This document shows, piece by piece, positions 24,106 through 37,671 of a DNA stretch of 64,000 nucleotides. The notes below the pieces were generated by a model, which saw only the letters and a list, made by a program, of their open reading frames with translations, did not search any database and had not been told where the DNA came from. Origin of the DNA: a virus (Duplodnaviria > Heunggongvirae > Uroviricota > Caudoviricetes); the IMG/VR virus record IMGVR_UViG_3300005329_000001. The stretch is one strand, 5' to 3'. How positions within the stretch are numbered: position 1 is the stretch's first letter; each line of letters begins with the position of its first letter. The translations under genes and the position numbers were made by a program.

Positions 24106-24557
24106 CAGTTGCCCCCTTTCTCAGCCAGATGGAACCGGCTATTGATGTGAATGACATCGTTCGTTTCCGAGCATTGAGCTTCACCATGAAGCACTGCTGG
24201 AGCGAACACTTCCTTGAACTTTGCCTTCAGGTCTTCCCACTTCTTGTCATCGATTCCAGGCCACACGAATCCCATCGATACCGCACAGGTCTTCTCGTGG
24301 CGATCGACCACTTTCTTGCTCAGATGAACCCTGATTCCGTACTCCTCGAAATCGATGCCGGCGACTCCCTGAACCTTGTGAAGGTCCACCCCGAACATCG
24401 ACTGCAGCACCTTGCATCGAGTCATGAGGAAGTCCCTGCGGAATGCCTCACTCAGCGAGTGGTCCAGATGCCAGACCATGAGAGTGCAGAGCTCGGAGCC
24501 CTCTCGCACCAGAGCGCCTCGAACCACACACTCGCCTGCTTCTTCCTCTCGCTGCAT
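24105..24557 (-). CDS. hypothetical protein
   Basis: 150-aa ORF, SD ggaggagaagca; stop overlaps start of collagen-like gene. Confidence 0.5.
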   Translation of the reverse strand: MQREEEAGECVVRGALVREGSELCTLMVWHLDHSLSEAFRRDFLMTRCKVLQSMFGVDLHKVQGVAGIDFEEYGIRVHLSKKVVDRHEKTCAVSMGFVWPGIDDKKWEDLKAKFKEVFAPAVLHGEAQCSETNDVIHINSRFHLAEKGGN

Positions 24558-24623
24558 TGCTTCTCCTCCCCCACAGAGGTCAATAGAAGGGTGTGCCCTG
24601 GATCTACTGCTTTCCAGGCTAAG

Positions 24624-24633
24624 AGCTTATCTC
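24624..24633 (-). promoter_or_regulatory. GAGATAAGCT motif upstream of 24105..24557
   Basis: ~75 nt upstream of ATG. Confidence 0.3.
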
Positions 24634-24651
24634 AGATCTGAGAGGGTGGTT

Positions 24652-25299
24652 TTACTTTGAGAGGGCTTCGGAGCTGGCTGGGGCGGTCATGGCACCCCTA
24701 GTCCAGTCTGGAGAGTCTTCTTCAGGCCCCTCATACACCTTCCCGATCTTGTAGACCTTTCCACTATTCACATCGATGAGAGCCGACTTGAGGTCCATCG
24801 GCATTTCGACTCGTGTGGCGGCCGCCTGCTGCACAGCCTGTGTGTGCATCGCTGGTGGAAGGTGAAGCTTCGATGGCGCCCGAGAGTGTTCTTCGCGTGC
24901 GTGAATGGTCAGGAAGCTTTCAACAGCGCGGACGTGTCCCGACAGCTCAGCGATCGCCTTGCTGTATTCCTTGTCGTTCTTCTGCAGCTCTTCGACTGCG
25001 ACCTTCGTTGCCGCGTAGCCGGCCTCCGCTTCCGCCTTGGTCTCATTGGCCTTCATCTGGGCCTCTACCTTGGCCGCCCGATACGAGAAGTAGCTAGTGA
25101 TGAGAGGTGGGATGGCCACCACCAGCAAGACCAGCCACCAGGGGCTCTTGCGGTACTTCTTGAGTATGCCTTCGGGTGAGGTGTGGGACTCGTCCTCGTG
25201 CTGCTCTGCTGCGTTGTGCATGAGCGAAGTTTGGATCGGAACCTCGTCGCTGGGAAGGACAGCTAAGAAGAAGCGAGAGTACATCCTCGCTTCTTCCAA
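24652..25299 (-). CDS. single-pass membrane protein with periplasmic coiled-coil (spanin/holin-like topology)
   Basis: TM WWLVLLVVAIPPLITSYF then coiled coil; start ambiguous (TTG 25299 or ATG 25284). Confidence 0.45.
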   Translation of the reverse strand: MEEARMYSRFFLAVLPSDEVPIQTSLMHNAAEQHEDESHTSPEGILKKYRKSPWWLVLLVVAIPPLITSYFSYRAAKVEAQMKANETKAEAEAGYAATKVAVEELQKNDKEYSKAIAELSGHVRAVESFLTIHAREEHSRAPSKLHLPPAMHTQAVQQAAATRVEMPMDLKSALIDVNSGKVYKIGKVYEGPEEDSPDWTRGAMTAPASSEALSK

Positions 25300-25301
25300 G
25301 G

Positions 25302-25454
25302 CTAGCGGCCGGGCGCCACGACCTCGACCTTCTTCTTCCCGGCGTTGTAGGCGATCGGAGCCGCGATCGCGGTCCCGGCCACCACACCACCGACGATGGC
25401 GAGAGTGAGAGTAGCGGTGGAGCTGAGGCCGAGAGCGACGAGAGACTTGAACAT
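25302..25454 (-). CDS. small single-TM protein, paralog family member 1 (50 aa)
   Basis: MFKSLVALGLSSTATLTLAIVGGVVAGTAIAAPIAYNAGKKKVEVVAPGR; SD caggaggag; not on ORF track (<60 aa); paralogous to 35520..35750, 36429..36674, 36671..36908. Confidence 0.5.
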   Translation of the reverse strand: MFKSLVALGLSSTATLTLAIVGGVVAGTAIAAPIAYNAGKKKVEVVAPGR

Positions 25455-25544
25455 GTGGATCTCCTCCTGAAAAGGTTTGCTAGATCATCTGTCTAGCTTC
25501 ATAGGCCTTATAACCGGCTGTACGGGGGATTTGCAGAACTGAGG

Positions 25545-25991
25545 CTAGGCGGGGGTCTTATTGAGCGTTTCGAAGGGTATCAGAGCCTCTCGGAAGAGGT
25601 CTTCCACCATGCCACTGTTCTGGCTCTGGTAGTACTCGCGCACAACGACTCGGACGATGCCTGCGTTGATGATTCTCTTGGCGCATTCGTAGCACGGCGA
25701 CACGGTGCAGTAGAGCGTGCAGCCCTCCGCCATGATCCCAGCTTGATCGATGGCATTCGACTCGGCATGGAGGGTGCGGATGCAGCTCTGTCGGCCGTCG
25801 ATCTCCTTCATGAGATGCCCCACGTCGTCGCAGTGAGGCATCCCACGGGGAGATCCATTGTAGCCTGTGGAGACAATCGTCTTGGTCGCGTTGTTCACGA
25901 GAACCGCCCCCACATGCTTGCGATCGCACGTGGCTCTGGTTGCAGCATGATCTGCGATCCCCAGGAAGTACTCATCGACTGTCGGTCTCAT
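25545..25991 (-). CDS. dCMP deaminase (cytidine/deoxycytidylate deaminase family)
   Basis: zinc motifs HAESNAI and SPCYECAKRI (H-x-E ... PC-x2-C). Confidence 0.85.
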   Translation of the reverse strand: MRPTVDEYFLGIADHAATRATCDRKHVGAVLVNNATKTIVSTGYNGSPRGMPHCDDVGHLMKEIDGRQSCIRTLHAESNAIDQAGIMAEGCTLYCTVSPCYECAKRIINAGIVRVVVREYYQSQNSGMVEDLFREALIPFETLNKTPA

Positions 25992-26001
25992 TGTCTCTCC
26001 A

Positions 26002-26328
26002 TCAGGTGGTCGGTGGCGGGAGCATACCTGAGATCATTTGGTATGTCTGGTAGAGCTCGTACTGGGCCCAGCGAAGCATACCTTCGGCAGCCTGATTGAT
26101 GTCGGGCCAGGCATGGTGATCCCGCTTCGTGTAGCACTTGCCCTGGAGCGTCCCAACGAAGGGAAGCGGCTCCCGGGGCCGATACTCGATGATGAGGAAG
26201 AAGGGGAAGAGATGCATGGACCACGCGGTGTTAGTCTTGTTGGGAATCCACGCGTTCTCGTATGCCATCACCCCTGCCCCAGCCGCCGCATCAGCTTCTC
26301 TTTGCACTGGTGCCTGTATCTGTGGCAT
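26002..26328 (-). CDS. hypothetical protein
   Basis: 108-aa ORF; start uncertain (alt ATG 26268). Confidence 0.4.
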   Translation of the reverse strand: MPQIQAPVQREADAAAGAGVMAYENAWIPNKTNTAWSMHLFPFFLIIEYRPREPLPFVGTLQGKCYTKRDHHAWPDINQAAEGMLRWAQYELYQTYQMISGMLPPPTT

Positions 26329-26337
26329 GGCCCTACT

Positions 26338-26814
26338 TTACTTGGTGGGTGTGTTCTTGGGATCGATCCTACTGGGAGGGCGACCTTTCCCTGAACTTCT
26401 CTTCTTCGAGGCCTCCTTGTTTTGCCTCGCCTCCTCCTTCCGCCTCTTCCGCTCCTCGGCCTTGTCCTTCTGGCGCTGGAGGTAGCGGGCCTTGTCTTTC
26501 GCGGACTCTTCTCGCAGATCCCTGTTGATGTCTCCCTCGAGAGCGGTCAGCGCCTCGATGATGAAGCGGATCGGGTTGAAGTCTGCGATGTCGTGCTGGA
26601 AGTTCGGCATGATGCGCCCGTGCCGCGTGATATAGCCGCCGCGGGAGTGCTCGAAGCCGATGCTTGGGCTGTAGGTGCTGCCACTCTTGTCGAAGGAGAT
26701 ATGAACTCCGCTCTCCTTGTGGTGGTAGTCCTTGAAGCGCTTCCAGTGAGTCTCGCTATCCTCGGTTCTTTCCGGGCGGGAGCTGTTTTGGCCCTCGCCC
26801 TTCCCGTCGGTCAT
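26338..26814 (-). CDS. hypothetical protein with Lys/Arg/Glu-rich C-terminus
   Basis: 158-aa ORF. Confidence 0.45.
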   Translation of the reverse strand: MTDGKGEGQNSSRPERTEDSETHWKRFKDYHHKESGVHISFDKSGSTYSPSIGFEHSRGGYITRHGRIMPNFQHDIADFNPIRFIIEALTALEGDINRDLREESAKDKARYLQRQKDKAEERKRRKEEARQNKEASKKRSSGKGRPPSRIDPKNTPTK

Positions 26815-27466
26815 TTGAACCCTCCTTGGAGCCCAGCGCCGGTACTTCCAATCGTACGTGCTTTCCGAACTTGGGATCTTTCTGAACGCCCTGTGCGATG
26901 CGGGCGTTTTGCCACTCGCGGCCCTCGCTGTCGATCGCCGTCAGCCGCACGTAGAACTTGTAGATGGGATCCTTCTCGATGATCGACTTTGGGATGCCCG
27001 GATGGAGATACTCCAGCGCGGCGATGACGGTCTCGCGCATGGACTTGTCGGTATTGGGCGTCCCGAACTTCTTCTCCAGCAGGCCCCGCAGGCGGTGCTT
27101 CACCTGCTCGACTTGGTTGGGGTCCTGCTGAATGTAGCCGTAGCCCTGCTCCAGCTCTTGAGTCCTGGGAAGCAGGAAGGACTCAATCTCGGCTATTTCA
27201 TCCAACAGCTTGTTGTGGTTCTTGGCTTGCGCCAGGCTTCCCCACTCGGTGCGGTCTCTCGCGATGAAGTTCTGTGTGATCTCGATGCCGCGCTTCTTGG
27301 CTTCCTCCACCTCGTAGTCGCGAGGGTAAGACGCGATGATCCGCACCAGCAGCTTATCACCGCACTTGCACTCATACCACTCCGTGTCCGGGGGTTTGAG
27401 TCCCTCCACCTTTATACGCCGAAGACTTTGGTGATTGTCGCCGGTACAAGACATCTTATTTGACAC
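26756..27466 (-). CDS. hypothetical protein with N-terminal CxC...CxC
   Basis: 236-aa ORF; GGAGATAAG motif ~40 nt upstream; 3' end overlaps next gene by 59 nt. Confidence 0.5.
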   Translation of the reverse strand: MSNKMSCTGDNHQSLRRIKVEGLKPPDTEWYECKCGDKLLVRIIASYPRDYEVEEAKKRGIEITQNFIARDRTEWGSLAQAKNHNKLLDEIAEIESFLLPRTQELEQGYGYIQQDPNQVEQVKHRLRGLLEKKFGTPNTDKSMRETVIAALEYLHPGIPKSIIEKDPIYKFYVRLTAIDSEGREWQNARIAQGVQKDPKFGKHVRLEVPALGSKEGSNDRREGRGPKQLPPGKNRG

Positions 27467-27495
27467 CTCAATTTGAAAGGGTTTGGGGTACCCTT

Positions 27496-27507
27496 TCTTA
27501 TCTCCCA
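27496..27507 (-). promoter_or_regulatory. GGGAGATAAGAA motif upstream of 26756..27466
   Basis: ~40 nt upstream of ATG, downstream of hairpin 27529..27548. Confidence 0.35.
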
Positions 27508-27528
27508 GGGGGAGTTGAGGTTGCTAAA

Positions 27529-27548
27529 AGAGAGGAAGAATCCTCTCT
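27529..27548 (-). terminator. hairpin terminator with TTTAGC tail
   Basis: agagagga-ttctt-cctctct, just 3' of gene ending 27555. Confidence 0.4.
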
Positions 27549-27554
27549 AGAAGC

Positions 27555-28115
27555 TCACGCAGCGGCGTGAACTGGGGTGGCGGGGAAGATCTTGGAGTTG
27601 AATTGGAACTGCGTGGCGGTCTCTTCATCGAGGAAGAGCTCAGGATGGCGTCGTACTTCTCTCTCGATCTTCTCGAACTCGTAGGCTACAGCCTTCGTCA
27701 GGAGCCCCACGTCGTGATAGAGCGGGCCGCCCTGTACCATGAAGACGTGCTCCTTCGCCTCGTTCCAGTAGACGAGCCCAGCGTAGGCGCTCACGATGCG
27801 ATTGAACCGCTGCATGGCGTCACGGAAGCGGGCGTGTGACTCCGCTGTTTCGTCGACCGACGGGGTGTAGAAGTCGACGGCTTCTCGCATCAGCGAGTGC
27901 GAGGCCCGTCGGGCCAGGACGAAGGTGAGATGCATCAGAGCTCGCCTGAGGAGCTCTCCGCGCCGCTGCTCGAGCCCTTCCGACTTCGGGGCCCGCACGA
28001 TGTTGCCGATCGCCTCGAGCACTAGGTACACGACGCCACTGCTTTGGTGCTTCTGCACGAGCTCCAGCGCCAGCTCGAGGGTTTCCTCGATGCTCCCCTT
28101 GTTCACCAATTCCAT
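27555..28115 (-). CDS. hypothetical protein
   Basis: internal ATG (MELVNKG) preceded by strong SD aaggaggtcagg; track ORF extends to 28190. Confidence 0.5.
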   Translation of the reverse strand: MELVNKGSIEETLELALELVQKHQSSGVVYLVLEAIGNIVRAPKSEGLEQRRGELLRRALMHLTFVLARRASHSLMREAVDFYTPSVDETAESHARFRDAMQRFNRIVSAYAGLVYWNEAKEHVFMVQGGPLYHDVGLLTKAVAYEFEKIEREVRRHPELFLDEETATQFQFNSKIFPATPVHAAA

Positions 28116-28191
28116 CCTGACCTCCTTTCCTTCCCCATACTTTGCCCGCGCCGCCACCGGAGGGTAGTTGCTCTGCAGTAGCGTCCGCATC

Positions 28192-28515
28192 CTACGACCC
28201 CGTCAGCTTGTCACGAGCTGCCTGCGCCTTGGTATGTAGAGCGACCATCGTCGCTGCCAAGACCCCGCCATCTGCTTCGATGAGCTCCATGGCCTTCGTC
28301 ATGACTTGCATTTGGCCCGAGACCAGGTTGTCGTTGAACATGGACGGAACGACGATCTCGTCCGTCTTCACTTCGTAGATGCTCAGAGTCCACGATTTGT
28401 CCTGCGGCAGCTTCGACACTTCCAACCGAACCAGCTTGAGGTTGAGCGTGTACTTCTCTTCGTGCAACACTGATGACTTCTTGCTCCGAACCCAGTGGTC
28501 CATCTGATCCTCCAA
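28192..28515 (-). CDS. hypothetical protein
   Basis: 107-aa ORF, SD ttggaggatcag; motif GGGGATAAGTAC 40 nt upstream. Confidence 0.5.
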   Translation of the reverse strand: MEDQMDHWVRSKKSSVLHEEKYTLNLKLVRLEVSKLPQDKSWTLSIYEVKTDEIVVPSMFNDNLVSGQMQVMTKAMELIEADGGVLAATMVALHTKAQAARDKLTGS

Positions 28516-28545
28516 AAGAGCGTGCCTTACGCTCTACTCTGTACT

Positions 28546-28555
28546 TATCCCCGAG
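28546..28555 (-). promoter_or_regulatory. GGGGATAAGT motif upstream of 28192..28515
   Basis: unit homologous to 36075..36131 (hairpin-CTTTAGCCATC...CCTCGG-motif). Confidence 0.35.
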
Positions 28556-28582
28556 GAGGACCGTGGGTTGATGGCTAAAGAG

Positions 28583-28603
28583 AGGGGGCAAGCCACACCC
28601 CCT
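28583..28603 (-). terminator. hairpin terminator with CTTTAGCC tail
   Basis: agggggca-agccacac-cccct; 3' of gene ending 28612. Confidence 0.4.
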
Positions 28604-28611
28604 CTGCCTCT

Positions 28612-28959
28612 CTAGCCTGACGAGGCCTTCTTGTGAGAACTAGAAGGCGTATCGTTGATCATGGCTGGAATGGCCTCAGAAGATTCCTGAGCTGTCTGAT
28701 TTCCCTGATGGTCTCCCATGACGGCGCTGATCTTGACGTGAATGGGTGGCTTGATATACCCAAGCCCACCCAAGACCAGCGTCACTTGCTGACCGAGAAT
28801 TGCCGGCGGCCAACCGTGCTCGGCTGTAGATGGCGTGCGAAGCAGCGTCGCTTCCTTAAGGTCGTTGTCGTACTCTTCGGTGGTCTCTGCCTCCACTACG
28901 ATCAGTACTTTGCCCATCGTCGTTTCTCCGCTCCTACGGGGTGTACTCCCAAACGTCAT
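28612..28959 (-). CDS. hypothetical protein
   Basis: 115-aa ORF; start ambiguous (28959 or ATG 28917 MGKVLIVV). Confidence 0.45.
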   Translation of the reverse strand: MTFGSTPRRSGETTMGKVLIVVEAETTEEYDNDLKEATLLRTPSTAEHGWPPAILGQQVTLVLGGLGYIKPPIHVKISAVMGDHQGNQTAQESSEAIPAMINDTPSSSHKKASSG

Positions 28960-29025
28960 TCCGACATCACTCGCCCCCTCCTCCCTTTAGAAGCAAGCGA
29001 AACTTCCGCTTGCTTCTACATACTC

Positions 29026-29448
29026 TTATCTCTCCTCTTCACTCGTCGGTTGCTGGCGGGCTTTGATGCAGCCAGGACAGTCGACCACTCGGGGGGAATG
29101 AATCCGAAGCTTCGACGATGGTGCCCCATGGAATCGGATGCTGCACTGGAGAACACCGGACTGCCTCCTGGTCGTGTAGTCATACTCGTGCTCCTTGACC
29201 TCGTGGTGGTGACCCCGAAGCCGAATCACTATGACTCGGTTTGGGGGAAGGTTCTTCAGTATCGCCCTCTCTAGGTCCCCTCCAACGGCTCTCCAATCTC
29301 TCGCGATGGCTTGAGCGTCTTGCCTCCAAGCTTCTTCATCGGAGAGTGGTGAATTAGACCGTCGATGGAGCACCTTCCGGTACGTTGACCGAGACGGAGC
29401 GAAACAGTCACCCAACCACGCCAGGAATTGCCCGATTCTCCTCAGCAT
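29026..29448 (-). CDS. hypothetical protein
   Basis: 140-aa ORF. Confidence 0.45.
   Translation of the reverse strand: MLRRIGQFLAWLGDCFAPSRSTYRKVLHRRSNSPLSDEEAWRQDAQAIARDWRAVGGDLERAILKNLPPNRVIVIRLRGHHHEVKEHEYDYTTRRQSGVLQCSIRFHGAPSSKLRIHSPRVVDCPGCIKARQQPTSEEER
29034..29045 (-). promoter_or_regulatory. GAGAGATAAGAG motif upstream of 28612..28959
   Basis: followed by 10-bp stem hairpin gaagcaagcg/cgcttgcttc. Confidence 0.35.
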
Positions 29449-29456
29449 CTAAACTC

Positions 29457-29855
29457 CTATGCCTTGATGATGGTAGCGGCCCTTTCAGCCCGACGTTTCT
29501 TTTCCTTCACAGCGAAGTGCGTGTACTCGGTGAGTTCCTTCATGCTGGGCTTGCCGTTGTAGAACTCGACTAGCTTCGGCCTACCCGATTGACGGGTTCT
29601 CTCCTTCCCACTGAATTCGAAGACCATCGTATAGACCGCACTTCTGACGTAAGCGAACATCGCATGGTACTCAAGCCCGTGAATGCAGAAACTCCCTCGG
29701 TAGCGGGTGTGACGCTCTTTCCAAGTCTTCAGAAGCTCCTTCTTCATTTGAGTCTTGGAAGGTCGTCGCAGGGGCTCGTGCGTTATTTCAATCGTGGGGC
29801 CGTAAAACTCCAGTTTGACGCCTTCCACGAGTCCCTGGAGAAACGCATTCAACAT
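29457..29855 (-). CDS. hypothetical protein
   Basis: 132-aa ORF, SD gggagggagag upstream. Confidence 0.5.
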   Translation of the reverse strand: MLNAFLQGLVEGVKLEFYGPTIEITHEPLRRPSKTQMKKELLKTWKERHTRYRGSFCIHGLEYHAMFAYVRSAVYTMVFEFSGKERTRQSGRPKLVEFYNGKPSMKELTEYTHFAVKEKKRRAERAATIIKA

Positions 29856-29946
29856 GTTCTCTCCCTCCCCTTCCTAAATAGTTCCTCACGATGGTGTGCT
29901 CTGCTGCCTCGTCGCCTTGGCCGCCTCAATCGCTTAGAGCTATATT

Positions 29947-29957
29947 TCTTATCTCCG
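29947..29957 (-). promoter_or_regulatory. GGAGATAAGAA motif upstream of 29457..29855
   Basis: 6 nt after terminator tail CTTAGCT. Confidence 0.35.
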
Positions 29958-29965
29958 AAATAGCT

Positions 29966-29988
29966 AAGAAGAGGCCGAGCCTCTTCTT
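29966..29988 (-). terminator. hairpin terminator with CTTAGCT tail
   Basis: aagaagaggc-cga-gcctcttctt; 3' of gene ending 29995. Confidence 0.45.
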
Positions 29989-29994
29989 GGTGCT

Positions 29995-30189
29995 TTAGAT
30001 CTTCGAAAGCTCCTCGACGAAGTCCTCGACCGCCTTGATGTAGCCTTGGCGATCGGGGTCTTCCGGCAGCGTGTTGCTTGCACGACGGAGCATACTGCCG
30101 GCGAGGAGCTGCATGGTCTGGCCGAGAGTCGGGTTGAGCTGGCGGAGCTTCTCACGAACTTCCTCGAGGCGCTGACTGTCCGTCTTCAT
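29995..30189 (-). CDS. small hypothetical protein
   Basis: 64-aa ORF, SD aaggagaatcag; motif TGAGATAAGAAAG upstream; terminator hairpin directly downstream. Confidence 0.5.
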   Translation of the reverse strand: MKTDSQRLEEVREKLRQLNPTLGQTMQLLAGSMLRRASNTLPEDPDRQGYIKAVEDFVEELSKI

Positions 30190-30227
30190 CTGATTCTCCT
30201 TATAAAGACGATGTGTTTCCGTCTTAC

Positions 30228-30239
30228 TTTCTTATCTCA
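30228..30239 (-). promoter_or_regulatory. TGAGATAAGAAA motif upstream of 29995..30189
   Basis: 30 nt upstream of SD. Confidence 0.35.
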
Positions 30240-30651
30240 GGATGGCGAGCCGAGTTACCGTCCCATTGGGCCATATGACGAACGGCTCCTTCGTCTTCTG
30301 GGCGTACTTGATCGTGTACCAAGTGCCCCCGATCTCGAGAGGGCGGTCAGCGACGGAAGCACCCGTCAAGTACCAGGTCTCTTCGACGATGTCCCTGTTA
30401 CGAGCGAAGTAGTTCTTGGGGATGCGAAGCTCATCGTAGCCTTTGCACCACGCTCGCTTGTCGGGTTTGATCGGGGGATGAATGACGATGCGCAGCTTCA
30501 TGTCCAGAGCGATCTCGTGCGCTTCGGCGTCGGCCCCGATGCAGTCGCCGTGATGGAACTCAGCGGCATTGAGATCGTAGAGAAGTTGGCGGAGGGATAT
30601 CTTCTGCTGCACCGTCATTCCCTCACTCGTGCCGGTGAATCCGATCTTCAT
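30232..30651 (-). CDS. SLOG/DprA-like Rossmann-fold protein (DUF2493-like)
   Basis: internal ATG MKIGFTGTSEGMTVQQ...HHGDCIGADAEAH resembles Gly-rich nucleotide-binding loop of SLOG-superfamily proteins; track ORF extends upstream in low-complexity sequence. Confidence 0.4.
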   Translation of the reverse strand: MKIGFTGTSEGMTVQQKISLRQLLYDLNAAEFHHGDCIGADAEAHEIALDMKLRIVIHPPIKPDKRAWCKGYDELRIPKNYFARNRDIVEETWYLTGASVADRPLEIGGTWYTIKYAQKTKEPFVIWPNGTVTRLAILR

Positions 30652-30995
30652 CACCCACTCCCAGCCAGGCGATGCGGCTTGTCCGGGCCTCGCCCTTGAG
30701 TGATGAGCAGGTTTGCGATGGCGCCGAGCGTTTCGCTGTCGTGCTCTTTCTCGGCATTCATTCGGAGACCAATGTCTGGATGATGGTCGAGCCACAAGAT
30801 CTCCCGGATGTTCTCCAGCAGCATCTCGTCGCTCATCGTCCCATCGGCACGTGGGTGAAACTGCCCAAGGATCGAGCGGAACATCGTCTGTTCTCGAACC
30901 GCCTCTCCTCTCATCATCAGCTCCGTCATCTCGTGGAGCTTGGCTTCTACCTCTTCCAATCGCTGCGTCAGAAGACTGCAGTTGCTGCAAGACAT
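30651..30995 (-). CDS. hypothetical protein (N-terminal CSNC, coiled-coil)
   Basis: internal ATG MSCSNCSLL with SD agggggag. Confidence 0.45.
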   Translation of the reverse strand: MSCSNCSLLTQRLEEVEAKLHEMTELMMRGEAVREQTMFRSILGQFHPRADGTMSDEMLLENIREILWLDHHPDIGLRMNAEKEHDSETLGAIANLLITQGRGPDKPHRLAGSG

Positions 30996-31003
30996 GACTC
31001 CCC

Positions 31004-31270
31004 CTAGGGTTTGCTCTTCACGAACACCTTCCACTCTCGCAGTGGCTCGAGCCTCGCTGTGTCCAACGAGAAGAGCCGATCGCACCGACCCTCTCGATGG
31101 ACACTGAGAGACCTCGTCGCCGGCAGATGCTTGAGGTGCTCATAGGTGATGGCAGAACAATAGCCGTACATCGACGTCGAGGATGCGAAGGTGCTGTGGG
31201 CGCAGAGACCGCAGTTGCCGAGAATCGAGTATCCGATTTGCTTCAACGCCGCCAGCTTGTTCTGGTCCAT
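31004..31270 (-). CDS. Cys-rich hypothetical protein
   Basis: internal ATG MDQNKLAAL with SD aggagctgac. Confidence 0.4.
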   Translation of the reverse strand: MDQNKLAALKQIGYSILGNCGLCAHSTFASSTSMYGYCSAITYEHLKHLPATRSLSVHREGRCDRLFSLDTARLEPLREWKVFVKSKP

Positions 31271-31278
31271 GTCAGCTC

Positions 31279-31590
31279 CTATTTGAGATAGGTGAACCAC
31301 TCGTACTGGTAGCCAGACTCGAGCCAGTGCCCGAAGAGAATGATGCTGCCGTCGGGGCATGTGTAGAGACGGGCCTGGCAGGTACCCTTCGTACCATTGC
31401 TCGCGTCCCAGGTGCCGGCCACCCAACCATCGGACTTGGCATTCTTCACGATGGCCTGATAGGTGAGGCCATTGACGTTGGCGTTGACTTCAACCGTCAC
31501 GTCGGTGGCGTTGGGTTTCACGACCTCACCGTCGACTGCAGTAGATTCAAAGCTGTGTGCCGGGGTACTCCAATAAGCCTTTCCGCGCAT
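31279..31590 (-). CDS. hypothetical protein
   Basis: 103-aa ORF, SD gaggaaaacttc; motif GGAGATAAGAG directly upstream. Confidence 0.55.
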   Translation of the reverse strand: MRGKAYWSTPAHSFESTAVDGEVVKPNATDVTVEVNANVNGLTYQAIVKNAKSDGWVAGTWDASNGTKGTCQARLYTCPDGSIILFGHWLESGYQYEWFTYLK

Positions 31591-31609
31591 GAAGTTTTCC
31601 TCCTGTATT

Positions 31610-31620
31610 CTCTTATCTCC
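31610..31620 (-). promoter_or_regulatory. GGAGATAAGAG motif upstream of 31279..31590
   Basis: TTAGCTgttcGGAGATAAGAGaatacAGGAGG..ATG. Confidence 0.4.
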
Positions 31621-31630
31621 GAACAGCTAA

Positions 31631-31651
31631 GAAGAGGCGCAAGGCCTCTCC
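31631..31651 (-). terminator. hairpin terminator with CTTAGCT tail
   Basis: gaagaggc-gcaa-ggcctctcc; 3' of gene ending 31656. Confidence 0.45.
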
Positions 31652-31655
31652 TGTC

Positions 31656-31850
31656 CTACCTGAAGAAGGGTCGGGTTTCGAGTAGCCAGATCTGGTAGTT
31701 CTGGTATTCCAAGGCGCCATCGGTGTTGAACGTGATCGTGGGAATCAGTGGAGGCAGTATGAAACCTATGGCGTCGACGGTGACTTCGACTTCGAACGGC
31801 GCAGGTTCGCTACCCCACTTGGCTGTGATCTCGTGATTGATCTCGACCAT
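31656..31850 (-). CDS. small hypothetical protein (64 aa)
   Basis: ATG MVEINHE with SD gaggggggcggg; overlaps 3' end of upstream gene in another frame. Confidence 0.4.
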   Translation of the reverse strand: MVEINHEITAKWGSEPAPFEVEVTVDAIGFILPPLIPTITFNTDGALEYQNYQIWLLETRPFFR

Positions 31851-32269
31851 GACCCGCCCCCCTCTGACTTTTCCTGGAGCTTCTTGAGCTCCTCTTCTTT
31901 CACCAGGTATGCGAGGTGCTCTTCGAAGAGCTCCAACCCGATGAGCTCGATGCCGGCTGAGCGAGCGTAGTTCACCAGCATCAATGGCTCGAAGTCGTTC
32001 TCCAGCCCAGGCCCGCGGCGGATGCGAACACGCCGCGAACCGAGCACCCGCCACCGCTTCCCACTCGTCTTCTCCAAAATCTCGGTATCGCCACGGACGA
32101 AGATGATGTTGTCCTTCATCACCGACATGAAGGCGATGCACTCGTTCGATTTGAGGCTATCGACGAGCTCACGGAGGCCTGGCTCATGGAAGTAGGCGTC
32201 GTCGAAGTTGGTGAGCTCAGATCTCGTGAACGAACGGGTGAGGATATTCTTGAGGCGTAGCTTTTCCAC
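31766..32269 (-). CDS. hypothetical protein
   Basis: GTG start adjacent to stop of 32271..32624; C-terminal 35 aa Ser/Arg-rich, possibly out of true frame. Confidence 0.35.
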   Translation of the reverse strand: MEKLRLKNILTRSFTRSELTNFDDAYFHEPGLRELVDSLKSNECIAFMSVMKDNIIFVRGDTEILEKTSGKRWRVLGSRRVRIRRGPGLENDFEPLMLVNYARSAGIELIGLELFEEHLAYLVKEEELKKLQEKSEGGGSWSRSITRSQPSGVANLRRSKSKSPSTP

Positions 32270-32270
32270 G

Positions 32271-32624
32271 TCACACCGTGAACCGGAGCTTGCGCTCGAC
32301 GATGGCTTCGCACTCTCTCGTTTCCACATCGATGGCGATCTTCTTGACCCGATAGGGCTGATCGCTCTTGTCCTGCTCGCTGGCCAGGAGATCGAGGAGA
32401 TTGCCGACGCCCACTGTCAGTGCACTCCCGTTGGCCTTCTCGAGCGCCTGGTTCGTGAGGGTGATGGCCACCGTCTTCTCCTTCAACGCCAGGATGGAGT
32501 CGATGGTGGCCCAAGTGCGGTTGAACTTCTTGCACAGCCCGGTCTTGTTCATGCCCTGGGCCGCAGCTTCGAGAACCTTCTTGCGCTCCGTATCCGTCAC
32601 TGCTCGACGCGTTCGACCGGCCAT
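32271..32624 (-). CDS. helix-turn-helix DNA-binding protein
   Basis: MAGRTRRAVTDTERKKVLEAAAQGMNKTGLCKKFNRTWATIDSIL resembles resolvase/IS-type HTH; SD aggaggacatca. Confidence 0.5.
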   Translation of the reverse strand: MAGRTRRAVTDTERKKVLEAAAQGMNKTGLCKKFNRTWATIDSILALKEKTVAITLTNQALEKANGSALTVGVGNLLDLLASEQDKSDQPYRVKKIAIDVETRECEAIVERKLRFTV

Positions 32625-32693
32625 TGATGTCCTCCTGATTTTCCTAAAGACGAGGTCATTCCCAGAATGGGAATGTGCCTTATGCACGTCTAG

Positions 32694-32705
32694 TTCTTAT
32701 CCCCG
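32694..32705 (-). promoter_or_regulatory. GGGGATAAGAAC motif upstream of 32271..32624
   Basis: 70 nt upstream of ATG. Confidence 0.35.
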
Positions 32706-32872
32706 AGGAGAAGAAGCGGTTGCGACGGACAGCTAAGAGAAGGCCGAGGCCTTCCCAGAGTCCTACTCGAAGCGGTTCTTGAGTCGGCAGATCAGCTCTC
32801 CGACAAAGGCATGCAAATAGGGGAGGAGGATGATTGTGGAGATGAAAGCGAGCACCAATCTCCAAGTAGGCG

Positions 32873-33229
32873 TCATGCGTGTCCAACCTTGTCGACTTGC
32901 ACTTTCCGAGGCGAAGGCTCTGAGATGCGTTCGATGCCGATCGGCCCCATAGAGTTGAAGCGAGAGCCGCAGCCGAGGCCGATGCAGATGTAGTTGACCG
33001 ACATGCCTCCGTGAGGGCCTTCGACAATCTCAGCCCCACAGTCCGGGCACTTGTGCATGAGGAAGATGACCGTCTCTGGCGGCGCCAGGAAGTCTCCTTC
33101 TTCCATCGATCGCTGCCGAGTGTCCTGCTCTCGAGATTTTGCGTTCATCTTGCCGGTGCGACGAGCGATTGCGACCAGCATCCCGCCAATCACCAAGAGC
33201 CCAACGAAGCCCATCCCAACCGTGCCCAT
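32873..33229 (-). CDS. membrane protein with C-terminal zinc ribbon (CPDC...CIGLGC)
   Basis: 118-aa ORF, N-terminal TM, SD ggaagggagc. Confidence 0.5.
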   Translation of the reverse strand: MGTVGMGFVGLLVIGGMLVAIARRTGKMNAKSREQDTRQRSMEEGDFLAPPETVIFLMHKCPDCGAEIVEGPHGGMSVNYICIGLGCGSRFNSMGPIGIERISEPSPRKVQVDKVGHA

Positions 33230-33300
33230 GTCTAGCCTCCTGTGAGATACGAGTGAAATCGTCCTCGGACGAGGAAGAAAATCATGCTCCCTTCCACACC

Positions 33301-33310
33301 CTCTTATCTC
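33301..33310 (-). promoter_or_regulatory. GAGATAAGAG motif upstream of 32873..33229
   Basis: followed by SD ggaagggagc. Confidence 0.4.
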
Positions 33311-33323
33311 ACTGAAAACTAAA

Positions 33324-33342
33324 AAGAGGCACGAGGCCTCTT
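33324..33342 (-). terminator. hairpin terminator with TTTTTAGTTTT tail
   Basis: aagaggc-acga-ggcctctt; 3' of gene ending 33349. Confidence 0.5.
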
Positions 33343-33348
33343 GTGTAC

Positions 33349-33594
33349 TCAGGAAGCTATGTGGAGACGGTATGCTTTCAATGTCTCCTCGAGATTGAGG
33401 AGAGCGAAGAGCTTGGACTCGGTGCTGTCGTATTCCTCGAGGCGCTCGACCATCAGATGAAGCGCGTTCTTGAATGCTTCATTCAGATTGGGAGCAAGGC
33501 TGATCTCTTCGACGGCGTGGCGTGCATCTTCGATGCGGATCGACAGCTCGTCGTGAGTAGGAACCCGCGGCACCCTCTGGATCATGTAGGCCAT
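33349..33594 (-). CDS. small hypothetical protein
   Basis: 81-aa ORF, SD ggggagggagag. Confidence 0.5.
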   Translation of the reverse strand: MAYMIQRVPRVPTHDELSIRIEDARHAVEEISLAPNLNEAFKNALHLMVERLEEYDSTESKLFALLNLEETLKAYRLHIAS

Positions 33595-33636
33595 CTCTCC
33601 CTCCCCTCTTCTGATCTTTCCGTTGTTGGTTGTTGG

Positions 33637-34007
33637 TCAGAGCACGAGCTTCAGCTTCACCTTCTCCACCAGCGTCGTCTTGGCCTCCGAGCAGAACTCC
33701 TCTACCGCCTTGCCAGTGATACTACCCCTCGGATCGATGTGGACGGAAGATCCGCAAGTACCGCAGCTTCCCTCTACCGTGCTTGTGTCACCGATGAGGT
33801 CGAAGTTGTGCAGCTCGTGCCCAAGCCCTGTCGCCTGCGCAGCGGCCTCCGCACGTTCGTCGAACAGCTCTGCGGACGGTTTGTTACCGATCATCGGCTG
33901 CATCATGATCCGACGAAAGACGAGCTCTCGCAGCCAGCACGCTACCTGAAGATCCTCATCCTTCCCCGAACTGCTGATCCTCTCCATTGCGTCAATAATA
34001 TCCATGC
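33637..34007 (-). CDS. hypothetical protein
   Basis: internal ATG MDIIDAMER with SD gaaggaggacgc. Confidence 0.5.
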
Positions 34008-34022
34008 GTCCTCCTTCACCGC

Positions 34023-34033
34023 TCTTATCTCCG
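34023..34033 (-). promoter_or_regulatory. GGAGATAAGAG motif upstream of 33637..34007
   Basis: followed by SD gaaggagg. Confidence 0.4.
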
Positions 34034-34248
34034 ATATCTAAGAAATGTGGCCTTTGCAGGCCAGAGCCCCAGTGCAACGACCGACCCCATTGCGAGGTCG
34101 AGCTGCTGGTTCCGTCGTCGCTGCTTCATAAGAACACCTCTTCCATTGACTGCGGACAGCGGGCGGATCATCTCTCCGTTCAGGGGGTTGGGGGGAGATG
34201 AAGAAATGATCCGCCTCGCTGTCACAGTTCTTATACCGCGCGGGGCCT

Positions 34249-34521
34249 TCATGTTGCGGCCTCTTTATCCGATCCGAGGAAGGCTAGAATCGCGCATATG
34301 TGGCATGCGCAGTTTGCTGTGTGCCCGCTCTCGAGGATCCCAGATGAGTTGACCGTGAGAGCAACAGTGGGAGGACTACCAGTGCAGATGCGGTCGGGGT
34401 TGTTGACGTACCACTTTGTGCCGCACTTGCATCTGACGTGTCCTCCTGTCACCGCCGAGAGCTGCATTGGGCGTCCATCACGCCGCTTGCAGACGCAGTT
34501 GAAGTAGTGGACGAACTTCAT
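34249..34521 (-). CDS. Cys-rich zinc-ribbon protein
   Basis: 90-aa ORF with CxC...CxC...CxC. Confidence 0.4.
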   Translation of the reverse strand: MKFVHYFNCVCKRRDGRPMQLSAVTGGHVRCKCGTKWYVNNPDRICTGSPPTVALTVNSSGILESGHTANCACHICAILAFLGSDKEAAT

Positions 34522-34970
34522 CAGTACACCAGGTCAGGAGCACCCCAATCGCTGGCCTTGTCCTTCACGATGCTGATCCAGCGAGGGTCCTCGTGGTTCG
34601 GGTCGCCGGCGATGCGGGACTGCAGCCACGAAGGCGTGGTGTCGATGATGTAGGCGTGGAAGAGCTCGTGGGCGAAGGAGCTGGTCTTCCAGTCGCCGGT
34701 CCAGAGGATGTGGATCTCGTGCTGTCCGTTCCAGCCCTGGAGGCAGCGGCCCGTGGACGGCGTCTTGATGCCAGGCGTGCCGTAGTCGTCGGTGCAGTCG
34801 GGCTGGTCGAAGTTGACGATCGGGCGGGGGAACTGCTTGGCGGTGTAGATGTTGTCCCACACCGCAGTGAAGGCGGTCTCCTGCTCGTCAGCCGAGGGCG
34901 GCTCCTTCGGGAACTGGAAGCCCGAGCAGCCAGAGACAAGAGCGAGGACGACGAAGAAGAATTTGTACAT
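34521..34970 (-). CDS. lipoprotein with HExxH zinc-metallopeptidase motif
   Basis: MYKFFFVVLALVSGC lipobox; FAHELFHAYI; SD caggagaagccacc. Confidence 0.6.
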   Translation of the reverse strand: MYKFFFVVLALVSGCSGFQFPKEPPSADEQETAFTAVWDNIYTAKQFPRPIVNFDQPDCTDDYGTPGIKTPSTGRCLQGWNGQHEIHILWTGDWKTSSFAHELFHAYIIDTTPSWLQSRIAGDPNHEDPRWISIVKDKASDWGAPDLVY

Positions 34971-35004
34971 GGTGGCTTCTCCTGTGTTTAGTTTCAGCAC
35001 AGGA

Positions 35005-35015
35005 GCTTATCTCCG
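35005..35015 (-). promoter_or_regulatory. GGAGATAAGCT motif upstream of lipoprotein gene 34521..34970
   Basis: ~40 nt upstream of ATG. Confidence 0.35.
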
Positions 35016-35345
35016 CTAGAGAGCTATTCTCTCACTTTCCACGCTATCCTTGGGGTTCTGTCCCTCCTTTACCCGACCGAGCAGCTCTGCCGCCTGGCAG
35101 TTCCTGCATGGTGGCAGCTTGTGCTCGGCACAATTTGCGGTGCAGGGTGGGAAGCTCTCGAGGAAGGAAGTCAGGTCCGACGTCACGTCCTCACCCACCT
35201 TCACCTCCGAGTAGCCATGGCACTTCCTGCATTGGCCACAGCGTCTCGCGCCGGTACTCATGTGGCCATTGGGCCAGTGGATGCAGTACTTGCAGCGCAC
35301 CAGCTTCATGGCCATCGCCTCTTCGTACGAGATGATGATCACCAT
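35016..35345 (-). CDS. Cys-rich zinc-finger protein
   Basis: 109-aa ORF; CKYC, CGQCRKCHG, CTANC, CRNC. Confidence 0.45.
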   Translation of the reverse strand: MVIIISYEEAMAMKLVRCKYCIHWPNGHMSTGARRCGQCRKCHGYSEVKVGEDVTSDLTSFLESFPPCTANCAEHKLPPCRNCQAAELLGRVKEGQNPKDSVESERIAL

Positions 35346-35519
35346 CGTCCACTCCCTTCACCTGCTCGATAAGGTCGTTCGGTATCGAACCCGGAGCCAG
35401 GCCACCCAGAAGGTCAGGAGAGCCCTCTGGATGGCCCGGCTCTCGCCAGACAGGTCTAGCACGTCCATACTGCGTTGATCGTTTCGGAGCTGGGAACCCG
35501 GAAGGCCCTCAGTTCAGGA

Positions 35520-35750
35520 TCAGGTTGCGGGACCACCCAACGCCTTGTCGAACGAGGCGACTTCTCGCCGCAGCTCGACAATGTGGCCGGTCAACTCGGT
35601 CAGCTCGATCCCCATGTTCTTGATGTCCTGCCTTCTCCGCCGTTCGGAAACCGCGAAGGTGATTCCGGCGCCGGCGACGACACCAGTAACAACAGCCAGC
35701 GTCATCGAAGCTGCAGCGGACATCCCCAAAAGCGTCGCCTTCTTCCACAT
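35520..35750 (-). CDS. small single-TM protein, paralog family member 2
   Basis: MWKKATLLGMSAAASMTLAVVTGVVAGAGITFAV...; 76 aa. Confidence 0.55.
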   Translation of the reverse strand: MWKKATLLGMSAAASMTLAVVTGVVAGAGITFAVSERRRRQDIKNMGIELTELTGHIVELRREVASFDKALGGPAT

Positions 35751-35799
35751 AGCCGGTTCTCCTTTCTCCTCCCCATTCCGGGCAGTGAGAGACGTGCAG

Positions 35800-35988
35800 T
35801 CAGATGTTGTGAGAGTGTGTCTTGGTGTCCTTAGCCACCAAGAGGCGCAGCGTGCAGAGACAGCCGTTGATCAGACTGATGGCGATTGCGAACATCCAGT
35901 ACATCCGATCTGCTGCGAAAGGTCGGATGCACAACAGAAGAACCAGCATGACCAACCAGGTGACGGCCGAGACAGCGTAGTGCAGCAT
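35800..35988 (-). CDS. small two-TM membrane protein
   Basis: 62-aa ORF; preceded by 24-aa leader ORF (36062..35988) with motif GGAGATAAGAAC. Confidence 0.4.
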   Translation of the reverse strand: MLHYAVSAVTWLVMLVLLLCIRPFAADRMYWMFAIAISLINGCLCTLRLLVAKDTKTHSHNI

Positions 35989-36074
35989 CAGAACATCGGC
36001 GCATGGCCGTCGAGAAGCTTGCCGATCACCTTCACGAGAATCCGTTCAAAGAAATGCCTCATATTCACCTCCAT

Positions 36075-36086
36075 GTTCTTATCTCC
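36075..36086 (-). promoter_or_regulatory. GGAGATAAGAAC motif upstream of 35800..35988 and its leader ORF
   Basis: followed by atggaggtgaatATG. Confidence 0.4.
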
Positions 36087-36148
36087 GAGGAGGTGGCCCA
36101 GATGGCTAAAGAGAGGCCTCCAGCGCCTCTCCCAGCCCCGTATGGGAG

Positions 36149-36418
36149 CTACTTGAATAGGACGGTAGCCGAAGAGTAGTTTTGGGGACCGTCCAAGACC
36201 TTGTTGCAGAGGACGCCAGCCCTCTTCAACGCCTCCTTGGCTTTGCGCCCCTCATTGACGTCGATGGTGAAGTAGAGGAAGAATCCGCCCTCACGCACCT
36301 CGGCAGCCTCCTTCTTCTCCCACGTGCCCTCGGTCCACGAGATCGTATGCTGAGCGCTGAACATCACCATCAGGAAGTGCGTGAAGAGCTTCACCCAAGT
36401 GGCAACCTCGGCAACCAT
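36149..36418 (-). CDS. hypothetical protein
   Basis: 89-aa ORF. Confidence 0.45.
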   Translation of the reverse strand: MVAEVATWVKLFTHFLMVMFSAQHTISWTEGTWEKKEAAEVREGGFFLYFTIDVNEGRKAKEALKRAGVLCNKVLDGPQNYSSATVLFK

Positions 36419-36428
36419 GACCCGCCTC

Positions 36429-36674
36429 CTATATTCTTCTCATTTCCATTCTCAGTGCCGCGACCTCGCGCTCAAGCAAATCCAGCCGGTGAGCACTTCG
36501 GAGACCGTGATCGAGTGCTTGGGCGATCAGGTTGTTTGCCAAGTCACTGTCAGTCTCCTTCTTCCTCTTTACGAAGATAGCGTCCGCGAAGCTGGCGCCG
36601 ACGATGATACCACCGACGATTGAGAGAGTGATGCTGGCACCGGCGGACATCCCAAGCACCATCAATTTCATCAA
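36429..36674 (-). CDS. small single-TM protein, paralog family member 3
   Basis: MMKLMVLGMSAGASITLSIVGGIIVGASFADA...; 81 aa. Confidence 0.55.
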   Translation of the reverse strand: MMKLMVLGMSAGASITLSIVGGIIVGASFADAIFVKRKKETDSDLANNLIAQALDHGLRSAHRLDLLEREVAALRMEMRRI

Positions 36675-36908
36675 TTCCTCCCCTGTTTAATCGGCATCCT
36701 GACGCTGATGAAGTCCGGCATCGGGCCACCCGCCAACTGCGCCTCAATCTCTTTCGCGATCTTTTCCGCCAAGCTGTCATAGAACGTCTTCTTGGGCTTG
36801 GGGCGAGAGACGGTTTCCCAGATGCCCGCGCCGATCAAAACGCCTGCCACAAGAGCCATTGTGGCGGTCGCGCATGCCGAGAGTCCGAGAGCAGAGATCT
36901 TGAGCATA
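36671..36908 (-). CDS. small single-TM protein, paralog family member 4
   Basis: MLKISALGLSACATATMALVAGVLIGAGIWE...; ATG with SD cagggagaac (alt start 36949). Confidence 0.5.
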
Positions 36909-36952
36909 TGAGTTCTCCCTGTGAGTGATGAGGCAACTTCAAGCCTCATACT

Positions 36953-36963
36953 CTCTTATCCCC
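36953..36963 (-). promoter_or_regulatory. GGGGATAAGAG motif upstream of 36671..36908
   Basis: 17 nt after CTTAGCT terminator tail. Confidence 0.35.
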
Positions 36964-36985
36964 GATCTCTCTCGCTGACAGCTAA

Positions 36986-37036
36986 GAAGAGGGGAGGGCA
37001 CATCTGGCAGATGCGACCAGTGCCTCCCTCCCCTTT
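36986..37036. terminator. long bidirectional hairpin terminator
   Basis: aagaggggagggcac...gtgcctccctcccctttt; T-tract on + side, CTTAGCT on - side. Confidence 0.5.
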
Positions 37037-37075
37037 TCTTCTACCCAGCCCCGAATGGTGGGGCGTTATTGGCTT

Positions 37076-37273
37076 TCACAAGATCAGCAGCGCTAGCTCT
37101 TTGGCGTGGGCTCTGAGGTCTCGCACGTTGCGGTTCAGAATGGCATTGTCGGCGATCCGAACTACCACATCCTTGAACTCCTCGAACTCGGCGTCCGCGA
37201 ACTGCTCCTGAACGTCTTCCTTGCTTAGCTCGTACCGCATGGTCGGAACGTCCTGGAATGCGAGCATCATCAC
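37076..37273 (-). CDS. small acidic hypothetical protein
   Basis: 65-aa ORF, SD ggtagggtg. Confidence 0.45.
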   Translation of the reverse strand: MMMLAFQDVPTMRYELSKEDVQEQFADAEFEEFKDVVVRIADNAILNRNVRDLRAHAKELALLIL

Positions 37274-37362
37274 CCTACCCCCAGAATTTGCATTGTGACC
37301 GCCAGTGAGGCGCGGCTGATCGCAGAACCAGCGAAATTATGTCTTACGCTGTTTCTACATAG

Positions 37363-37373
37363 TTCTTATACCC
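37363..37373 (-). promoter_or_regulatory. GGGTATAAGAA variant motif upstream of 37076..37273
   Basis: variant with T for G; similar variant GTATAAGAAGG at 9139..9149 upstream of + gene 9175. Confidence 0.3.
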
Positions 37374-37377
37374 GTTC

Positions 37378-37671
37378 TCACCCTCGGCTTGCGGCTCGGT
37401 CGTCGTCCACTCGCTTCTTGCAGATACCGCAGTCGCTGAGGTGGTCGAGGACGTCCTCTTTCTGCTCTCTGTCCCTCCAGTCCTGGAAGACAGCAGCCCG
37501 CAGCTCGACGGGGCTGAGATGATCGTCCCCGAGTGGTTGATCGAGACGCGCTCGAGAGGCTGCATAGGCCTCCCTATCCTTGCTGAGCTCGTTGTGCGCA
37601 GCCTGGTATGAGAGGCCCTTCTCGGCGGCGTACGCTCGAACGACTTTCTTGAACTTCTTGTCCTTGGTCAT
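37378..37671 (-). CDS. hypothetical protein
   Basis: 97-aa ORF. Confidence 0.45.
   Translation of the reverse strand: MTKDKKFKKVVRAYAAEKGLSYQAAHNELSKDREAYAASRARLDQPLGDDHLSPVELRAAVFQDWRDREQKEDVLDHLSDCGICKKRVDDDRAASRG

Follow-up and report, generated by a model that had tools for sequence, protein, structure and literature searches.

A stretch of 64,000 nucleotides from a tailed virus (Duplodnaviria; Heunggongvirae; Uroviricota; Caudoviricetes; IMG/VR record IMGVR_UViG_3300005329_000001), referred to hereafter as the window, encodes four small proteins, p1 to p4, that share one predicted N-terminal membrane helix and differ in their C-terminal tails. Two traits make this family unusual: four copies reuse one helix, and a cognate pair, p4-p3, exists in two forms. 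Judged by sequence, p1-p4 are a new family within a known general kind, the small phage membrane proteins, and it is very probable that they are real membrane proteins with a sequence-specific helix. The dimorphism of the p4-p3 cassette and the conserved tails specific to each copy, neither of which appeared in the preliminary description of this DNA, are the strongest clues to function.

Four small genes in the leftward arm

All four genes sit in the leftward non-structural arm of the phage. Their corrected positions in the window are as follows.

25302..25454, minus strand: p1, 50 amino acids, MFKSLVALGLSSTATLTLAIVGGVVAGTAIAAPIAYNAGKKKVEVVAPGR; Shine-Dalgarno sequence (SD) GGAGGAG; from the open reading frame (ORF) call
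35520..35750, minus strand: p2, 76 amino acids; predicted membrane helix, then RRRR, then a helical tail containing ELTGHIVELRREVASFDKAL
36429..36671, minus strand: p3, 80 amino acids; predicted membrane helix, then KRKK, then a helical tail ending LLEREVAALRMEMRRI
36671..36907, minus strand: p4, 78 amino acids; predicted membrane helix, then RPKPKK, then the tail KKTFYDSLAEKIAKEIEAQLAGGPMPDFISVRMPIKQGRN

The four small minus-strand ORFs of the preliminary description were all confirmed, each with an SD (5-8 nucleotides upstream of the start), although the boundaries of two of them changed. The gene for p4 stands, but its end at 36908 was out of frame by one base; the correct position is 36907, where an ATG is preceded by GGGAG 7 nucleotides upstream. 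A longer p4 frame, from 36949, was rejected because a 1-nucleotide indel breaks it in a sister strain (strain B, below). The gene for p3 also stands, but instead of the TTG at 36674 (81 amino acids) the ATG at 36671 (80 amino acids) is the most likely start, since the ortholog P0007 and every metagenome gene call begin MKL and are 80 amino acids long. GGAGG lies 5 nucleotides upstream of this ATG. With p3 starting there, the p4 stop and the p3 start overlap as TGATG. The two copies are thus adjacent and overlapping, as first described, and the overlap indicates that p4, the upstream gene, and p3, the downstream gene, are probably translationally coupled. The p1 protein has the shortest tail in the family, and its gene is the last of its own unit, directly after a dCMP deaminase gene.

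A family of paralogs

The four proteins share a common N-terminal module of 30 residues, M-x-K..LG[LMI]S..G...G, and their N-terminal 41-42 residues contain 14-17 identities per pair. Searched against 1412 six-frame segments of the window, pairwise phmmer E-values among p1-p4 ranged from 1e-4 to 2.5e-7. Hidden Markov models (HMMs) built from three members each recovered the omitted one with E-values of 2.7e-10 (p1), 7.3e-13 (p2) and, for the other two, 3.2e-11 and 8e-10, while the best unrelated segment of the window had E>0.3. M1, L8, G9, S11, G23 and G27 were invariant in nine family sequences. The leave-one-out values (1e-10 to 1e-13) establish what had been proposed, that the four are true paralogs with conserved positions.

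The similarity is not purely compositional. When 1.84 billion representative proteins were scanned exhaustively with HMMER, the only matches were family members and one spurious repeat protein that matched the tail; two word-indexed searches of 5.8 billion proteins gave 5 and 11 clusters, every one made up of family members. By these whole-database searches the known family amounts to about a dozen sequences, spread over three or four related lineages of soil phages. No family member matched Pfam (E up to 10), PHROGs, NCBIfam or PADLOC. Weak NCBIfam matches to Rossmann-type GxGxxG N-termini were judged compositional and due to chance.

No fifth copy turned up when the window, in all six frames, and about 10 kb on either side of it were scanned with HMMs; copies were found in related lineages. 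A distant relative (L018), with 30-67% amino acid identity across positions 23-32.7 kb of the window, has both a p2-like gene (P0008) and, at the position of p1, a p1-type gene. In a third lineage (L037) a p1-type gene directly follows the dCMP deaminase gene. In the metagenome collection, 49 blocks index a protein identical to p1 (P0005). The helices of the two L018 copies are 64% identical to each other and 39-48% identical to their positional counterparts in the window, which suggests that helices may evolve together within a genome.

Selection, architecture and predicted topology

Purifying selection acts on these genes, in agreement with their description as real coding sequences. Between p2 and its 84%-identical ortholog P0004 (loci L009 and L010) there were 27 synonymous and 12 non-synonymous codon changes, and the ratio of non-synonymous to synonymous substitution rates (dN/dS) was 0.09 overall and 0.026 for residues 1-30. 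Between the two alleles (A and B, below) of p4 and p3, dN/dS was 0.22 and 0.14, respectively, with synonymous sites near saturation. Across these comparisons the ratio ranged from 0.09 to 0.22 for whole genes.

Each protein begins M-x-K(K), with Lys at position 3 or 4, and continues with an uncharged stretch of 27-33 residues that is 48-61% Gly, Ala, Ser and Thr, has a best 19-residue Kyte-Doolittle mean of about 2.0 and carries G23xxxG27. A cluster of 3-5 Lys or Arg residues follows (GKKK, RRRR, KRKK or RPKPKK), and the remaining 14-50 residues make up the tail. The single-pass membrane features and charged tails noted earlier were therefore recovered, and we infer that p1-p4 are inserted in the inner membrane. 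Counted by flank, 4-5 Lys or Arg residues lie on the C-terminal side of the helix and 1-2 on the N-terminal side; by the positive-inside rule the predicted topology is N-out/C-in, with a cytoplasmic tail and only about 3-4 residues outside. An AlphaFold2 (AF2) model of p2 was a single continuous helix from residue 2 to residue 70 (predicted local distance difference test score, pLDDT, 72).

The helix is the most constrained part of the proteins. Its identity was 34-58% between different copies and 56-58% between alleles of one copy, so that orthology is visible in the tails only, as patches specific to each copy type. The tails of p4A and p4B share KKTF.D.LAEKIAK ... RMP.K.GRN, those of p3A and p3B share QAL.H..RS..RLD..ER.VAAL, and those of p2 and P0008 share L.G....L..EV.

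The two forms of the p4-p3 cassette

The p4-p3 pair was compared between the window, which carries haplotype A, and strain B (L012, contig ERZ27252311 k141_4288701), which aligns to positions 26676-37991 of the window. Sliding identity and alignment defined one feature:

36425..36904, minus strand: two-form p4-p3 cassette, 56-74% nucleotide identity between haplotype A (the window) and haplotype B

Nearly all 100-bp intervals were at least 97% identical between the two strains and five others were 93-95% identical; only 36402-36893 fell to 56-74%. The divergence began just after the p4 start codon and ended at the SD of the next gene, and up to these two limits the flanks were at least 95% identical. 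Allele calls were available for 12 contigs, 10 of which carry both genes, and in all 10 of these p4 and p3 were both A or both B. The p2 sequence, for its part, did not vary among the contigs that carry it. Each cassette type was found on at least two flanking single-nucleotide polymorphism backgrounds, and both types were found in samples of the same study series. Since the alleles are linked and the flanking backgrounds mixed, the p4-p3 pair is an old dimorphism, which recombination moves as one unit within a mixing population. Scanning metagenome DNA with the conserved upstream flank of p4 returned one contig only, which was already in the set.

One apparent variant of p4 (L011 827-931) was rejected. 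The JGI contig L011 is 99.6% identical to the window up to 36690, inside the 3' end of p4, and then continues with unrelated sequence that gives p4 a different C-terminus (P0002) and matches nothing in the phage. This divergent 3' end is probably a chimeric contig end.

Other segments near the cassette also vary. A second sharply bounded two-form segment lies at 37672-37907, in the minus-strand gene upstream of 37378-37671. Its forms and those of the p4-p3 cassette segregate independently, and its alternative allele (L031 and L034) has two shorter ORFs in place of a 102-amino acid gene. The segments 37991-38251 and 40412-42835 are replaced or 89-90% identical between the window and strain B, compared with 97-99% elsewhere.

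Hairpins and promoter-like motifs

The sequence GGAGATAAGAG was enriched tenfold in the window, with 13 matches at no more than one mismatch compared to 1.3 expected. Its core, GATAAGA[GA], occurred 21 times in the window and never within the structural block at 1-16 kb. The motif usually forms part of a composite intergenic element, in which a GC-rich hairpin is followed by TCTTAGC(T), 7-25 nucleotides, GGAGATAAGAG, 5-12 nucleotides and an SD. This element looks like a candidate terminator followed by a putative phage-specific promoter with a -10-like element only. It is conserved in the distant relative L018 (9025-9100), where it precedes P0008. The sites that bear on p1-p4, together with examples from elsewhere in the window, are listed below.

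25261..25296, minus strand: terminator-like 11-bp perfect hairpin GAAGAAGCGAG/CTCGCTTCTTC plus TTAGCT, directly after the p1 stop
35394..35442, minus strand: strong, near-perfect hairpin (about 22 bp) directly after p2
36076..36086, minus strand: motif GGAGATAAGAA, preceded by a hairpin plus TCTTTAGCC; heads the unit orf28 - orf62 - p2
36928-36949: 7-bp stem-loop, between the motif at 36953-36963 and the p4 SD
36953..36963, minus strand: GGGGATAAGAG, a promoter-like copy of GGAGATAAGAG, directly upstream of p4
36984..37040, minus strand: terminator-like GC-rich hairpin, then TCTTAGC, upstream of the p4-p3 unit
31610-31620, 34022-34032, 36076-36086, 36953-36963 and 42657-42667, minus strand: examples of composite or motif sites
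41688-41698 and 43741-43751, plus strand: examples of further motif sites

The unit p4-p3-orf89 is bounded by two composite hairpin and motif elements. RNA folding of 36905-37050 gave a z-score of -3.1, and a composite element like that at 36984..37040 recurs at about 10 other intergenic sites. The spacer downstream of p2 (35346-35519) folded with -78.5 kcal/mol (z -3.0); this 175-nucleotide spacer is 90% conserved, like coding sequence, in a strain that is 87% identical overall. In L018 the p1-type gene also has a hairpin directly after it, the same arrangement as at p1. Each copy had been credited, as a rule, with its own GGAGATAAGAG element. This holds directly for p4, and the unit of p2 is headed by one, but p1 and p3 have none. 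No Rfam match was found anywhere in the window.

Neighboring genes and distribution

The genes beside p1 were as previously described, spanin-like and collagen-lipoprotein genes. One encodes a transmembrane (TM) plus coiled-coil protein whose PHROG match to Rz-like proteins is weak (E 0.004), and the other a collagen-repeat protein with a lipobox (SAGC). In L018 the order is dCMP deaminase, p1-type gene, hairpin, TM/coiled-coil protein, a protein of 143-150 amino acids and a collagen-like lipoprotein. The arrangement could be an unusual envelope-spanning or lysis module.

Window 23245-25299 with 25545-25991; L018 16881-19369; in part in L037: p1 module

The 150-residue member of the module in the window, orf150, had no homologs beyond itself and no PDB sequence match, and its single-sequence AF2 model (pLDDT 65) gave no significant fold match in PDB or BFVD.

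Around p2 the arm is rich in small envelope-directed proteins. Directly upstream of p2 in its unit (35800-36074, minus strand) are a 28-amino acid ORF and a 62-amino acid protein with two membrane helices, with a TGATG overlap between them. A predicted lipoprotein, MYKFFFVVLALVSGC..., encoded at 34521-35000 (minus strand), has a zinc-peptidase-like HELFH (HExxH) motif and no family match, and 32873-33229 encodes a TM plus zinc-ribbon protein. Further away, 19287-23118 and 50808-51710 (minus strand) encode a MoxR-like AAA_5 ATPase, a VWA-domain protein and a DnaJ-domain protein. Metagenome gene calls (loci L001/L002) add a DUF7352 protein and a response-regulator receiver-domain protein to this unusual accessory set.

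A major-head PHROG match and a 1223-amino acid ORF of tape-measure size identify the window as tailed-phage DNA; no tRNA genes were found in it. Near-identical contigs are present in many rhizosphere and soil metagenomes. No relative of the phage was found by INPHARED megablast and tblastn or by an IMG/VR pattern scan, nor was one found in 185,579 species genomes (GTDB scans with p2 and the AAA_5 ATPase). Contigs that carry genes of this phage reach more than 200 kb, and others are ERZ27252098 k141_4562223 (124.6 kb) and ERZ27252489 k141_2581326 (139 kb). The phage may be very large, or it may be part of a larger element.

Possible functions

We tentatively favor, as a possibility, an accessory role of the exclusion or immunity type, in which p1-p4 would act at the membrane against competing phages in a manner like superinfection exclusion. 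The grounds for it are the two co-inherited forms of the cassette and a packaging that resembles that of a moron. A co-inherited cassette in two forms is the pattern expected of a specificity determinant in conflict, and the p4-p3 unit, which differs between strains, is flanked by hairpins or terminator-like elements and a promoter-like motif (a candidate promoter). The shared helix is proposed to take all copies to a common membrane partner, which could be the other copies or a single host membrane protein, and the copy-specific tails would supply different activities or contacts. The p4 and p3 proteins are a coupled cognate pair whose two old, co-inherited alleles are exchanged as one cassette. 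Exclusion would act during infection, with p1 and p2 as conserved core members.

Known exclusion proteins offer partial parallels. T4 Imm and Sp, P22 SieA and HK97 gp15 are exclusion membrane proteins, and HK97 gp15 comes as a moron that has a promoter and terminator of its own. Such phage proteins are small, sit in the inner membrane, act at the envelope, are accessory and vary between related phages (PMC11436027, PMC10883804). However, p1-p4 are not homologous to T4 Imm or Sp, P22 SieA or HK97 gp15, and the known proteins are encoded by single genes, whereas p1-p4 are a four-member family sharing a helix.

Several observations count against an exclusion role. No homology was found to described exclusion proteins or to other characterized families (PHROG, Pfam, NCBIfam, PADLOC). 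Dimorphic cassettes are also known in lysis and anti-defense genes, and the signature is therefore not specific to exclusion; with only two cassette alleles known, co-evolution of p4 and p3 is beyond statistical test. N-out insertion needs one or two N-terminal Lys residues to be moved across the membrane. Helix conservation showed no significant periodicity at 100 degrees (p 0.69; best angle 115 degrees); the conserved positions are not confined to one face of the alpha helix, and we do not claim a single packing interface. Finally, the likeness of the two L018 helices could reflect concerted evolution or simply a recent duplication.

A bolder version of the exclusion role, which we consider quite improbable, is a modular membrane specificity system. 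The GxxxG helix would build one hetero-oligomer in the host inner membrane, with p4-p3 as the self/non-self or type determinant, and frequency-dependent selection among co-circulating phages would maintain two exclusion or immunity types. Lys at both helix ends may make the topology sensitive to membrane potential (compare lambda S107).

Lysis timing by holin/antiholin-like or releasin-like proteins is rather unlikely, although several features fit it. Here p4-p3 would be a holin-antiholin pair, and p1 would be the holin of a cassette with the Rz-like gene, orf150 and the lipoprotein. Small size (50-80 amino acids), one membrane helix and a charged hydrophilic C-terminus are classic holin features, and p1-p4 resemble holins, pinholins and signal-anchor-release (SAR) domains (lambda S, phage 21 S21, P1 LydA/B/C/D) in these respects and in their glycine-zipper-type motif. 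The helix is weakly hydrophobic, rich in Gly, Ala, Ser and Thr and preceded by basic residues, and its GxxxG and composition (48-61% of these four residues) are SAR-like by published criteria (PMC9239132). The adjoining, overlapping p4 and p3 form an adjacent gene pair, and P1 likewise has several holin-like genes (PMC9025707). Mosaic lysis cassettes are known, and the module in which p1 lies beside the weak Rz-like spanin match (E 0.004) and near the lipoprotein is kept in three lineages.

The nearest architectural analogue is the Mu gp25 releasin (DUF2730), which has an N-terminal membrane helix in predicted N-out/C-in orientation, about 4 external residues and a cytoplasmic C-terminal domain (PMC9239132); the likeness lies in topology as predicted for p1-p4 by the positive-inside rule, again with about 4 external residues. 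Unlike the releasin, p1-p4 have no DUF2730 match even at E up to 10, and their tails are shorter (14-50 compared to 73 amino acids) and not predominantly anionic. The setting differs as well, with four copies per genome and no recognizable endolysin within 5 genes of any of them. SAR domains, for their part, are N-in/C-out, whereas p1-p4 are predicted to be C-in from the Lys/Arg cluster after the helix and have no catalytic domain.

Other observations weaken the holin role. No recognizable endolysin was found beside any copy or in the window (precomputed Pfam matches on called genes plus scans), past which the genome continues, including the larger ORFs at 13.6-16.2 kb and 47.6-53.6 kb, and orf150 near p1 has no lysin-like match in sequence or in the fold of its low-confidence model. 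The p2-p4 genes are 10 kb away from p1, scattered in the non-structural arm amid genes of unassigned function, and between p1 and the Rz-like gene stands a hairpin that resembles a terminator. None of the members matches DUF2730 or a holin family of PHROG, Pfam or NCBIfam, and there is no conserved dual-start motif, Met4 of p3 being missing in allele B.

It is unlikely that p1-p4 are host-takeover modulators, each of which would inhibit or redirect a host inner-membrane protein such as a divisome component, transporter, sensor kinase or membrane protease. A sequence-specific, strongly constrained helix with differing tails would suit such a role, as would neighbors in the non-structural arm such as the two-helix orf62, the HExxH lipoprotein and the TM plus zinc-ribbon protein. 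There are precedents among small single-pass proteins, which p1-p4 resemble. AcrZ, MgrB, SidA and MgtS, of about 30-80 amino acids, act by helix-helix contact with a larger membrane protein, and SPO1 gp56, a 79-amino acid single-pass phage protein, blocks division via FtsL/DivIC. However, gp56 has a central membrane helix (residues 37-59) in N-in/C-out orientation and binds FtsL/DivIC through an extracytoplasmic C-terminal domain, whereas p1-p4 carry the helix at the very N-terminus and their tails are predicted to lie in the cytoplasm. Neither gp56 nor the bacterial regulators are homologous to p1-p4, no homology to known modulators was found, and none of these proteins is multi-copy with a two-form cassette. 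An essential, conserved host target would also explain poorly the two deeply diverged, co-inherited p4-p3 alleles in one population.

That the N-terminal module is a cleavable signal peptide, releasing the tails outside the cytoplasm, is highly improbable. The N-terminal Lys, the hydrophobic core and AxA-like small residues near positions 29-33 of p1, p2 and p3 would fit, but p4 has no AxA site, and the hydrophobic module is the most conserved part (dN/dS 0.026), the opposite of typical signal peptides. Moreover, 3-5 Lys or Arg residues directly follow the putative cleavage site, and such a cluster blocks Sec export. A cleavable signal peptide was rejected on the basis of this cluster and the conservation of the helix. 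A lipoprotein form of p4 was likewise rejected: the lipobox-like LSAC of allele A is not kept in allele B, and the leader is too short.

An artefact of helix composition, or of ORFs that are not genes, is scarcely credible, since short, Ala/Gly-rich, hydrophobic sequences and chance NCBIfam matches to Rossmann-type GxGxxG N-termini are countered by database-wide searches that give the family only, by strong purifying selection with many synonymous changes, and by SDs, translational coupling and synteny kept across three lineages; the suggestion of type I toxins fares no better, given co-directional operons with strong SDs, p4/p3 coupling, no evident antisense unit and no Rfam match in the window.

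Implications

Small phage membrane proteins are badly under-annotated, although they include holins, exclusion proteins and host-takeover factors. One sequence-specific helix reused with four tails makes a clean, testable case among them, and the two natural p4-p3 versions in otherwise near-identical genomes are a ready-made allele swap for specificity. As the soil-phage lineage has no match in isolate and viral-contig collections, any function found would annotate wholly uncharacterized genes. If that function proved to be ordinary lysis timing, the value would lie mainly in better annotation. If p4-p3 were instead the type determinant of a membrane specificity system, p1-p4 would represent a new kind of phage membrane conflict module without a described relative.

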